A stretch of 64,000 bases of DNA from Octopus vulgaris (Eukaryota): assembly GCA_951406725.2 (NCBI GenBank), contig OX597836.1, positions 40,176,001 through 40,240,000 on the forward strand, read 5' to 3'. Under the pieces are notes generated by a model that was not told where the DNA came from, did no database searches, and saw nothing but the letters and a program-made list of their open reading frames with translations. Shown here piece after piece: positions 18,397 to 64,000 of this stretch. The position numbers and the translations under genes are program-made. How positions within the stretch are numbered: position 1 is the first letter of the stretch; each line of letters opens with the position of its first letter.

Positions 18397-18684
18397 TCCT
18401 GGCAAGGAAGTCTTCTTTCTATTCCTATGGAAGCCATTTTGCAATGTGGGTAATTTTAAAATTATTTTAAACGTTGTACTTGTTCTATCGATCGCTTTTG
18501 TCAAGCGGTGGAGAGAGACAAACACACACACACACACACACACATATATATATATATATATATTCAAACATATAAGGGATGGCCATAATAGGACATCCGA
18601 CTCACAAGAAAGAGCAGTTAAACTCCAAACCACTAACAGTTGTAATTCTGAAATGGAAAGAGAAATAAAAACGTTTACCCTCTC

Positions 18685-18770
18685 CTTTCTGGACTATGCA
18701 TAGTTTCGGCAATCTTTTTGTAAATAAAATAAATTTATTTACGATTGGCGTTGCACTCTTCAGCAGAAAG
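18685..18770 (-). ncRNA. Type-I hammerhead ribozyme with canonical core, inside a TA-flanked Penelope-like unit (about 18563-18968)
   Basis: Minus strand: stem I CUUUCUG, CUGAAGA, long stem II opening G and closing C, GAAA, stem III CUA-UGCA-UAG, UC (triplet GUC), stem I CAGAAAG. Confidence 0.8.
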
Positions 18771-19106
18771 CCAAGGACTAACATATACCCACGAGGCAAT
18801 AATAGCCATGCCTCGAGTCTATATGCTATAACTTTTCAAAATCAACCACTCTCGCGCGGTTCTCAGCAGCAAATATAAACTGCTGATTTAATTTCAAAAT
18901 TAGCCAAAAATATCATTAATTAATAAATCTTAGGGTAGCAAAAAATTCTAGAAAAATTCTCCACTACATATATATATATATATATATACACGTATATGTA
19001 TATATATATATATATATATATATATATATATATATATATATATATATATATATATATATATATATATATATATATATATATATATATATATATATATACA
19101 TATATA

Positions 19107-19640
19107 TTAGCCTTGTCTTTTAGTTACATTGTCTTTTACTTCCAGTACCCTTGCCCCTTATTTCTTATTTTTTCATTTTTTAACGTTTATTTTTTTCTCT
19201 CTATTTTATTTTCTCTCTATTTTTCTTTTTTTCTTTTTTCTTTTTTCTTTCTATCTTATTTTCCTTCCTATCTTACACAAGAGAATTGAATATAAACCCA
19301 TTCCAATCTATTTAACATTCACTCTATGTTGACTGGTGATACAGTATGGGCAGATTTTCCAAATCAAATGAATCTTTATACATTTATACAGTTAGGAAAT
19401 TTTACAAATACACTTTTTCAGAGAGGTATGATAAACCTATTATAATGGGTAACACTACATGTACTTTTCATATTTTTATAGTGTGATGTAACTCTTTGGA
19501 ATAACAATGTTTGCGGCTGAAGGGACCTTTAAACCATCTTTTATATCAATAATACACTGATGTAATAACGGATTGTTTATAAAGATTGAAACACGTGTAC
19601 CGCGATATCCTTTGTGTTCTGTTTTTAATTTTATTTGATA
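19107..19640 (+). mobile_element. TA-flanked Penelope-like terminal unit with degenerate hammerhead (19555-19605)
   Basis: ctgatgt...gaaacacgtgta with palindromic stem III; 19253-19437 duplicated at 24787-24971; (TA)n on both sides. Confidence 0.5.
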
Positions 19641-19697
19641 AATACATACACATATATATATATATATATATATATATATATATATATATATATATAT

Positions 19698-19878
19698 AGT
19701 TGACAGCTAAATCTACAGATTTTTTTCATTCTCTCTCTGTGTATTTTCTCTTATCTCTTTATGTTGAAGAGCGTCGGCTCGAAACGTGAAAGACTTTTTC
19801 ATTTTCCCAAGCGTCAAACTAATATACTTGCTTGTTGCTCATACAATTATCTTCGTCATTTGTTTTACTGTAAATTAT
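19698..19878 (+). mobile_element. Short hammerhead-motif element family H, copy 1 (decayed core)
   Basis: tctttatgttgaagagcgtcggctcgaaacgtgaaaga at about 19756-19793; TA flanks. Confidence 0.65.
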
Positions 19879-20019
19879 ATATAGAAATATATATATATAT
19901 ATATATATATATGTATATATATATATATATATATATATATATGTATATATATATGCATATATGTATGTGCATATATATATATATATATATATTAAATTAG
20001 ATATATATATATATATACG

Positions 20020-20190
20020 CATATAAACGACAGGCTTCTTTTAATTTCCGTCTACCAAATCTACTGAGGGTTTTGGTCGACCTGAGGCTATAGTAGAAGA
20101 CACTTACCCGAGGTGTCACGCACTGGGACCGAACCTAAAACCATATGGTCGAGAAGCAAGCTTCTTACCACACAACCACGCTGCGCCTAC
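20020..20190 (-). mobile_element. SINE family B 5' portion
   Basis: ttccgtctaccaaatc...cttaccacacaaccac. Confidence 0.8.
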
Positions 20191-20194
20191 GCAC

Positions 20195-61414: not shown

Positions 61415-62315
61415 GACACAGGTGTGGTTGTGGGGTGTAAAGTTTGATTTCCAACCACAAGGTTCCAGGTTCGGTCTCATTGCGTGTTACCTTGGGTAAG
61501 TGTCTTCTACTATAGCCTCGAGCCGAATAAATCCTGATGAGTGGATTTGGAAGGCGAAAACTGAAAGAAGCTCGTCCTATATACATATGTGTGTGTGTGT
61601 TTGTGTGTGTGTGTGTGTGTGTGTGTGTGTGTGTGTGTGTGTGTGTGTGTGTGTGTGTGTGTGTATCTGTCTGTCTGTGTATGTGTGTGTGTGTTCCCCA
61701 CAACCACTTGACAAACGGTATTTTTTATGTTTTCGTTCCCATAACTTAGCAGTTCGGCAAAACAGTCCACTAGAATAAGTACCAGGCTTTACAGAAAAAA
61801 TATAAGGCGCAGGAGTGGCTGTGTGGTAAGTAGCTTGCTTACCTGCCACATGGCTCCGGGTTCAGTACCACTGCGTGGCACCTTGAGCAAGTGTCTTCTA
61901 CTATAGCCTCGGGCCGACCAAAGCCTTGTGAGTGGATTTGGTAGACGGAAACTGAAAGAAGCCCGTCGTATATATGTATATATATGTATATATATGTGGG
62001 TGTGTGTGTATGTTTGTGTGTCTATGTTTGTCCCTCTAGCATTGTTTGACAACTGATGCTGGTGTGTTTATGTCTCCGTCATTTAGCGGTTCGGCAAAAT
62101 AGACTGTTAGAATAAGTACTGGGCTTACAAAGAATAAGTCCCGGGGTCGAGTTGCTCGACTAAAGGTGGTGCTCCAGCATGGCCGCAGTCAACTGACTGA
62201 AACAAGTAAAAGAGTAAAGAGTATTGTGTCGATTCATTCGAGTAAAGAACTTTTTCAAGGCGGTGCCCCAGCATGGTCGCGGTCTGAAGACTGAAACAAG
62301 TAAAAGATAAAAGAT
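61415..62315 (+). mobile_element. Older family B SINE (61415-61790, tail resuming about 62225-62315) interrupted by a younger full-length copy (61806-62222)
   Basis: Two heads and two tails in nested order. Confidence 0.8.
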
Positions 62316-62499
62316 ACTAAAGAACCGAAAACCATATTCAACTACACATACTAATAATCAAGTTTACTATTAAGTCCACCTTACTAACAAAATTTAATTC
62401 TCATTATCCGGATATATAAATAATAAAAATTATAGTAGTCCATACTATTCTTGTTTTCGCCTAAAAGTCTTTGGTCCATCCACCCAAGGAAAACGATGT

Positions 62500-62910
62500 T
62501 TGCTCAGCGGGTGGGGTAGCACTATCTCATCCACGCACTTGATGTTGGCTTTCGTGTTGAGTCTGAAGCCGTATGGGAAGATAAATGGACGCATAACGTC
62601 ATCATCACTAGTGATCACTCCAAACACCATGATGTTGACTGGATGCTTAATTTTTATCACTCTCGGTACACGTCCTCAGATTGTATTGTCGTCAGATTGA
62701 CACCTAAACACTCTGAAATGTTCGTATTGAAGCTTCCGGTACGAATGCCAAGCGGTACAGCATGTCGTTTCCAAATTTCTGGCAGAGTGAATTGCGACAT
62801 GATACTGTTATTCTTCCAAACGGTGCCCAACCATATTGTGTAGTCGACAAACTCAAAAGCATAGAATGCACATGCGCGAAATTACGACACCTTACCCATC
62901 GCTCCATGTA
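62500..62910 (-). mobile_element. Internally deleted Tc1/mariner-superfamily (maT/DD37D-like) transposon
   Basis: Minus: TA-bounded end, MSQFTLPEIWKRHAV..GIRTG...ISECLGVNLTTIQ joined to IKIKHPVNIMVFGVITSDDDVMRPFIFPYGFRLN. Confidence 0.7.
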
Positions 62911-63051
62911 TGTATATATATATATATATATATATATATATATATATATATATATATATATATATATAAAAAAGTTGAGTTGTGGGGTATCGCACGAGTG
63001 GGATTATATAAGAAAAAAGGTTTGAAAATGCAATTTAAACGATGTTTATTT

Positions 63052-63092
63052 ACTTAACCGGTTTCACTCTTTGGTAAAAGATTGTCAAAAGT
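63052..63092 (-). ncRNA. Minimal type-I hammerhead-like motif with U3-A8 in place of C3-G8
   Basis: Minus: ACUU-UUGACAA-U-CUUUU-ACCA-AAGAG-U-GAAA-CCGG-UU-AAGU. Confidence 0.55.
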
Positions 63093-63106
63093 TACATTTA
63101 AGGAAA

Positions 63107-63333
63107 CATTGAATAATATGGGTTCAAAAAAGTTTTTTACATAATTGTCACATTGAATATTATGCATTCAAAAAAGTTTTTTACATAATTGTCACATTGG
63201 ATATTATGGGTTCAAAAAAGTTTTTTACATAATTGTCACATTGAATATTATGCATTCAAAAAAGTTTTTTACATAATTGTCACATTGGATATTATGAATT
63301 CAAAAATGTTTTTTTATACATAATTGTCACATT
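63107..63333. repeat. 44-bp minisatellite, about 5 copies
   Basis: ttcaaaaa starts at 63123, 63167, 63211, 63255, 63299. Confidence 0.95.
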
Positions 63334-64000
63334 ATTTGGGAAAATTTGGCAGAAAAGGATAAAACAAATATATTATTGGGAATTGGTTGCGTTAATTATT
63401 GGTTGTCGCAAATTGTCACATTACATGTATATATATACAATCTTTGGTATATATATACAGCGTTTTGACAGCAAAAATTAAAATGGATTTTTTGTCCATC
63501 TCAGAATATTTTAAGTATGTTTTTACTGACCTGTTAGTATTAGCAGAAAGGCTGAACTGAGAGAACAGAAGTAGCCAATGTGGTGTATACTTCCCCTTTA
63601 TGCATGAATGATTTTGGGGTTATCAGGAGGTTAGTATGCGGGTGTGAATAGATGTGTCCGTGCCTGCTGGTCAGACAGCGTCTGTTTGTCACACACATAT
63701 ATATACACACAAACACACACACACACAACAACACACACACACACACACATAGTATACAAACACAAACCACATACAGACAACACACACACACACAGAACAC
63801 ACACACCCACACACAACGCACCCACATATATCACATATATACACAGCACACAAATATAACATGTATCTATATATAATATACACAGATATATAACACACAT
63901 ACACACACACACACACAACACACGCACACATACATACATAATATAAATATCACACAAATACACCTAGCATATATATATACACACATACAATACACACATA

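Follow-up and report, generated by a model that had tools for sequence, protein, structure and literature searches.

The question raised by this stretch of the Octopus vulgaris genome is whether the short repeats in it that carry hammerhead-shaped motifs are genuine ribozyme-bearing elements and, if so, from what kind of mobile element they come. The stretch, hereafter the window, comprises 64,000 nucleotides (assembly GCA_951406725.2, contig OX597836.1, positions 40,176,001 to 40,240,000 of the forward strand), with a GC content of 23-45% and dense microsatellites and repeats resembling short interspersed nuclear elements (SINEs). The motifs are real as a set. By analogy with described systems, the units that carry them are best explained, at a probability of roughly 0.78, as the 3' ends of Penelope-like retroelements (PLEs), be they copies truncated at the 5' end, solo terminal repeats or derivatives without coding sequence, which would belong to at least six families and whose motifs have mostly decayed. 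Elements of this class are already published, and the unusual point is the U at core position 6 in an abundant family, denoted family A.

Hammerhead-shaped motifs in the window

A sequence-only reading of the window had listed ten motifs, all of which were recovered on the strands given and at or near the places given; the motif placed at 19555 actually spans 19513-19603, CUGAUGU at 19557 being a decoy within its stem II. All six stem III palindromes listed with them are present, but the motif at 24525 carries ACAU, not ACGU. The units are given below, 'Hydra-style' marking likeness to the hammerheads of the Hydra clade of PLEs.

18563-18967 (-): canonical type I hammerhead unit flanked by TA tracts; motif 18685-18770 with a 7-bp stem I, CUGAAGA, a long stem II, stem III ACUAUGCAUAGU and C17 at 18692
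19513-19603 (+): Hydra-style hammerhead in which A9 is replaced by G (A9G), stem I being GCGG/CCGC and stem III ACACGUGU; unit about 19110-19651; (AT)23 begins 53 nt past the motif
19699-19875 (+): family A copy; motif 19756-19793, core AUGUUGA, G17
24453-24640 (+): family A copy flanked by (TG)n tracts; motif 24525-24562, core CUGCAGA, broken palindrome
25202-25478 (-): TA-bounded unit; motif 25364-25446, CUGAUGA intact, 6-bp stem I, long stem II, GAAA reads GGAA
26597-26682 (+): additional canonical-core hammerhead, Hydra-style (cited below as 26601), TTAG CUGAAGA U ... U GAA ACAAUUGU A CUAA; (TA)13 starts 3' of it at 26816
30777-30894 (+): family A 3' part without hammerhead, its 3' end duplicated in tandem (31 bp)
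37588-37634 (+): decayed hammerhead-like motif, 6-bp stem I, stem III ACGGCCGU, core unrecognisable; (TA)29 lies 39 nt downstream
41950-42135 (+): family A copy; motif 42005-42040, core CUGUAGA, G12A
44195-44376 (+): family A reference copy; motif 44241-44278, UCUUU CUGUUGA A GAGC GUAG GCUC GAA ACGU A AAAGA
45719-45885 (-): family A copy, 93% identical to the 44241 copy; motif 45812-45849
48043-48480 (+): copy of family B with a decayed, hammerhead-like motif at 48196-48250, identified by eye and not matched by a descriptor
49720-49990 and about 50700-51175: other family B copies, the first beginning within stem II, the second with a motif at 50896-50952
62969-63430 (-): unit with the U3-A8 variant, ending at (TA)28; motif 63052-63092, core UUGACAA, stem II UCUUU/AAAGA, stem III ACCGGU

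The set was compared with 60 local dinucleotide shuffles using a descriptor of the type I hammerhead with a palindromic stem III. Allowing no more than one core mismatch and requiring 4 bp or more in stem I, the descriptor matched four motifs against a mean of 0.12 (maximum 1) in the shuffles, and with at most two core mismatches five against 0.6 (maximum 3), so that the motifs exceed the shuffled frequency, equality with which the sequence-only reading had named as the outcome that would speak against it. A looser scan without a stem II filter (stem III at least 4 bp, stem I at least 6 bp) gave two motifs against 0.13, a number that 0 of 100 shuffles reached, and uncovered the canonical-core motif at 26597-26682, which was absent from the earlier list. 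GAA with a palindrome of at least 6 is overrepresented generally (33 in the window versus 18.6 in the shuffles), and because the window is palindrome-rich the shuffles underestimate the background for the weakest motifs. Rfam gave no match at the gathering threshold across the window, and the best 150 of 637 matches by E-value were microsatellite-driven, nearly all of them to microRNA models.

Self-BLAST placed the motifs at 19756, 24525, 42005, 44241 and 45812 in one family (A) with identities of 69-93%, and found no mutual matches among the other five. As half of the ten thus belong to family A, the several unrelated elements that had been proposed come to six families and not ten. Partial copies of family A were recovered at 30777-30894, 45524-45556 and 44650-44701. 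A 3' motif shared across families was also sought, but the 8 of 55 pairs with p<0.05 against 300 shuffles lay mostly within family A or in low-complexity sequence and were not used.

Judged by the type I core, i.e. C3U4G5A6N7G8A9, G12A13A14, the A15.1-U16.1 pair, H17 and three stems, only 18685 among the ten listed motifs is fully canonical, to which 26601 is to be added, while the core of 63052 is the known U3-A8 variant. The remaining eight of the ten each lack a conserved core base. Outside family A the defects are A9G in 19555, A13G in 25364 and four mismatches in 37588. All five window copies of family A lack A6, with U in four and C in one, and further changes occur in 19756 (C3A and G17) and in 42005 (G12A).

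The association of the motifs with TA tracts is seen on their 3' side. A tract of at least (TA)5 lies within 200 nt downstream of the cleavage position in 8 of the 10 listed motifs, compared with 27% at random (binomial p 7e-4, to be read with a cut-off picked post hoc and copies that are not independent), and at 39-168 nt in all five singleton motifs, in keeping with the (TA)n preference of the Hydra clade. The claim that the units are mostly TA-bounded fared less well, since only five of ten motifs are bounded on both sides (p 0.07) and the 24525 copy sits among (TG)n. That the units are devoid of open reading frames (ORFs) was borne out, 24 translated frames giving no relevant Pfam match. 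Tandem units are not found in the window, where adjacent family A motifs lie 1.6-17 kb apart, and there is no head-to-head pair among the ten units as judged from the five longest inverted pairs per region.

Family A and core position 6

Family A is a unit of about 180 bp that consists of a pyrimidine-rich head, the motif and a tail of about 100 nt, usually followed by TA; its 5' ends are rather fixed, about 35-60 nt ahead of the core. The consensus of the motif is UCUUU CUGUNGA A GAGC GUAG GCUC GAA ACGU H AAAGA. The family is present in 22 of 24 listed sequencing runs from 13 studies, the runs with at least half of its words carrying five organism labels, and four runs contained 22,285 (with about 76% of that run read), 13,095, 2,570 and 232 contigs bearing it. 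None of the runs listed with it is labelled as RNA; two (X10 and X18) are guessed to be so and do not count here as evidence of transcription. The family is abundant, as the high copy number claimed for these elements would have it; summed contig depth is not the same as copy number.

Conservation within the family is highest in the hammerhead block, where pairwise identity among the five window copies is 88%, compared to 67% for the 3' part and 49% for the 5' part. Summed depth is likewise highest on the motif (in one run, X1, it exceeds the deepest 3' bin about 2.5-fold and the bin 44223-44229 17-fold), and loose contig ends accumulate at the edges of the motif block, 44242 and 44281, which indicates that subfamilies share the motif and diverge outside it. 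Across the four runs position 7 (44250) is variable, A making up 23-43% and C 18-23% of the depth, and positions 3-6, U6 (44249) included, have no listed variant of 5% or more. The invariance of 44251-44270 may stem from alignment seeding, a stretch outside which positions 3-6 lie, past the variable base; the variant table is depth-weighted and may miss changes near contig ends, such as position 17, which is variable in the window and unlisted. The stems are intact, 96% of cells being paired. An alternative register with the core UUGAAGA was rejected, because it leaves stem I unpaired and puts the variable base at U4. The predicted fold of family A is a rod, not a three-way junction, and U6 permits such a rod-like alternative, in which U4-G5-U6-U7 can pair with AACG.

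Cleavage by family A is predicted to be weak or lost, because its core, CUGUNGA, has U6. The nearest natural parallel is the hammerhead of phage Bcep176, which also carries a change at core position 6, A6C, and in which cleavage is lowered in Mg2+ and retained in Mn2+ (PMC3088659, PMC7151607); from the weakening in Mg2+ we predict that U6 too would impair cleavage. That case is a single phage motif, however, whereas family A is an abundant animal repeat with A6U. Cleavage is dispensable for the in vitro insertion of one PLE (PMC11167929), so that a silenced yet mobile family is plausible. Tentatively, and with the odds against it, family A may be a genus-wide and very abundant non-autonomous passenger of PLEs, in which U6 was fixed before the subfamilies split and the motif has nonetheless remained the most conserved part, either as a silenced fold kept as a signal for PLE proteins or as an active A6U variant.

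Origin of the hammerhead-bearing units

The motifs most closely resemble the minimal hammerhead ribozymes of metazoan PLEs, the published consensus of which has a U-rich 5' flank, a short stem I, an extra base after A9 and a palindromic 15.2-16.2 (PMC4209133). The window motifs share the short stem I, the extra nucleotide after A9, the palindromic stem III, the U-rich flank and a position near the 3' end of the unit, which is the layout of a PLE terminal-repeat motif. Cervera and De la Pena (2014) described genomes with numerous minimal hammerheads from truncated PLEs, heterogeneous and dispersed singly, a U3-A8 core among the variants, and cleavage of the minimal motif that is weak and dimer-dependent (PMC4209133); the window too has heterogeneous families, mostly single dispersed copies, and a U3-A8 variant. 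The published consensus reads CUGANGA, in contrast to the U6 of family A, and neither 'Octopus' nor 'CUGUUGA' occurs in the searched supplement text of that paper (PMC4209133).

Four of the five singleton motifs also have the layout of the Hydra clade. According to Craig et al. (2021), its hammerheads lie 100-200 nt from the 3' end and have an extended self-complementary stem III, often with a U after A9 and before GAA (File S2), nearly all its families insert in (TA)n, and one of them, Hydra-1_Obim, comes from Octopus bimaculoides (PMC8557442). By eye, an extended self-complementary stem III is seen in 18685, 19555, 26601, 37588 and 63052, with a U before GAA in all of these except 18685, and 25364 fits the general PLE hammerhead type. 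At natural Hydra-type loci the hammerhead lies 98-158 nt past the endonuclease stop codon in five of six cases, the sixth ending before it, and a TA-rich tract lies 42-53 nt beyond GAAA in three of five, a layout from which a copy truncated to 200-500 bp would resemble the window units. The window differs from these elements in the sequences of its motifs, in the much longer stem II of several and in having no significant coding relic. Some animal Hydra-type PLEs with hammerheads sit in contigs filed as bacterial metagenome-assembled genomes (loci L122-L127), where they are most likely host contamination.

A relaxed pattern with the layout of family A matched at least 121 metagenome loci, part of an estimated 3,500 or so, the host of which we take to be coral. 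A relic of a PLE endonuclease lies upstream on the same strand at 11 of the 121, the protein mostly ending 91-103 nt ahead of the core, and the GIY-YIG Pfam match among them is sub-threshold (E 9.5e-4). Ten of the 121 contain head-to-head pairs, and the majority have no coding relic. The sequences thus suggest that a layout like that of family A is elsewhere the terminal hammerhead of PLEs, present mostly as copies without an ORF. A6 is found in 130 of 131 matches at these loci, unlike in family A, to which U6 appears particular relative to the coral-type motif. As 11 of the 97 loci with at least 250 nt upstream are joined to such a relic, the 0 of 5 family A copies joined to an ORF is not unexpected. 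The exact family A pattern was found in neither metagenome nor viral contigs, and in viral contigs the relaxed pattern and the Hydra protein motif were likewise missing.

On a PLE origin, the reverse transcriptase-GIY-YIG protein would nick a (TA)n tract and copy the element RNA from a start 40-170 nt downstream of the hammerhead, an early stop of copying leaving 170-550 bp without coding sequence. Cleavage in the parent RNA would take place in a hammerhead dimer joined through the palindromic stem III, and family A would likely be a non-coding form mobilised in trans. Insertion of PLEs has been described as target-primed reverse transcription at AT-rich DNA, with a start inside the 3' region of the RNA and frequent 5' truncation (PMC11167929; preprint 10.64898/2026.07.22.740005), and the short 3'-end duplications of family A (31 bp at 30832-30894, with similar ones in five of nine contig joints) recall the PLE tail (PMC11167929), an optional feature of 30-40 bp.

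Several results weigh against this origin. No significant coding relic stands beside any motif in the window, coral endonuclease queries gave nothing there at E<0.37, and the published Hydra-1_Obim motif is not in it. A frameshift-tolerant profile, built from the best 120 of 1,134 Hydra-type proteins (those of Penelope/Poseidon and Nematis being left out) and run at two settings, the second with low complexity masked, scored at best 23.1 bits at a plausible site, 36088-36268 on the minus strand, a suggestive piece that lies beside none of the listed motifs and has a CxH motif, which in the C-terminal endonuclease of the Hydra clade accompanies CxCX5C and CxxC; this is within the range of the maxima from 12 shuffles (20.2-24.6 bits). 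In family A, 0 of 10 pairs show a compensatory base change, and the fairly fixed 5' ends point more to a SINE-like unit than to truncation at random. The metagenome loci are not TA-associated, TA following in 2 of 112, and the pattern that found them was built from family A, so that the likeness in layout follows in part from the search itself, and the coral comparison is one of analogy, not descent. With no joined ORF in the window, membership of the PLEs rests on motif layout, position and target. The description of the units as PLE-derived, TA-associated, hammerhead-bearing and ORF-less is nonetheless supported, its link to PLEs by analogy.

Words resembling the end of a PLE endonuclease (KRCSL.LTE, DLISNCRQ, NVIYKC, NVVYKI) can be read in the broken frames 36045-36282 (-), 27520-28330 (-) and 37126-37566 (+). 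These three candidates were rejected, as phmmer and homolog searches gave no hits, plain hmmsearch no domains and Pfam only three weak, unrelated matches in the 24 frames.

An origin of the units as monomers of non-LTR (long terminal repeat) retrozymes, transcribed from arrays elsewhere, self-cleaved to unit length, circularised and re-inserted by PLE proteins, is unlikely. These elements are likewise short and ORF-less with a type I hammerhead, and the size (170-550 bp) and low GC fit as well (PMC7229834); the terminal repeats of PLEs gave rise to their families, which comprise dispersed monomers as well (preprint 10.64898/2026.07.22.740005), and the fairly fixed ends of family A would suit them. 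The definition of a retrozyme, however, calls for complete hammerheads in tandemly arranged units and for circular RNA, and the check for tandem arrangement found no such unit in the window, which leaves the label 'retrozyme-like' unsupported; head-to-tail joints were also lacking among the contigs, which can show presence but not absence. Moreover, the motif lies mid-unit in the minimal, PLE-type layout, A6 is missing from family A, and eight of the ten motifs miss a core base.

Less probable again is that family A is a SINE-like repeat of other origin, whose 41-nt block is a plain hairpin or splice-acceptor region that happens to resemble a hammerhead. The predicted rod, the lack of covariation and the pyrimidine tract plus YAG that two copies read at the core agree with this, but stem I, CUG-N-N-GA, the extra A, the 4-bp stem II and GAAACGU match one-to-one a canonical-core motif found behind PLE endonucleases, and the variable site is position 7, the free position of hammerheads. 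No transfer RNA gene was found in the window (ARAGORN), degenerate heads being outside that search. A chance origin of the motifs, in DNA rich in AT and in palindromes, is very improbable: the general excess of GAA with palindromes, the poor cores of 37588 and family B and the silence of Rfam are what chance would give, whereas four motifs where 0.12 were expected, canonical cores and correct stems in both 18685 and 26601, and a repeated family A with intact stems, are not. Chance is thus largely refuted for the set and could account at most for individual weak motifs, 37588 for example.

Significance and neighbouring repeats

The sequence-only reading had presented the motifs as a hidden community of elements, which overstates their novelty, since such dispersed hammerheads (PMC4209133) and (TA)n-targeting Hydra PLEs, Octopus included (PMC8557442), are published. 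Insertion was possible in vitro without cleavage (PMC11167929), and Naiads elements spread without hammerheads (PMC8557442); an abundant family with U6 that keeps the fold would be a natural test of whether selection acts on structure or on catalysis. Such a family would further mean that a large class of these repeats escapes both strict descriptors and Rfam. No record of a U6 family was found in the literature on hammerhead A6U/A6C, CUGUUGA-type words or Octopus, repeat libraries and the work of Lunse et al. being outside that scope. Lunse et al. (RNA Biol) reportedly described variants of PLE hammerheads. A text search of two papers on octopus repeats gave no mention of hammerheads, and the repeat library of PMC13282606 may contain family A.

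In family B, a pyrimidine tract and a splice-acceptor-like site, CGCAG|(G)AAGG, stand immediately 5' of stem I (48170-48200 and 50860-50896), an arrangement comparable to that of the D. virilis Penelope intron (PMC4209133), and a second CUGA(A/U)GA lies 3' of the motif. The unit bearing the 63052 motif contains 44-bp tandem repeats at 63106-63333.

Other repeats also end at TA tracts. At 42796-43081 a TA-flanked long inverted repeat, with arms of 88 nt (92%) and 40 nt (95%), resembles a head-to-head insertion, no hammerhead being seen in it. AT-rich repeat pieces abut TA tracts at 25020-25170, 31240-31480, 37724-37860 and 46500-46860, in one case as an inverted pair, and are possibly other PLE termini. 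Units at 26842-26960 (-) and 44620-44760 (-) end at TA or TG tracts, with 3' ends that resemble each other and the tail of family A, and the former faces the 26597 unit tail to tail across the (TA)13 that both adjoin. Lastly, a stretch of 185 bp is duplicated with 100% identity 5.5 kb apart, at 19253-19437 and 24787-24971, the second copy interrupting an element that we take to be a mariner-type miniature inverted-repeat transposable element; the duplication reflects either a templated insertion of recent date or an artefact of the assembly.

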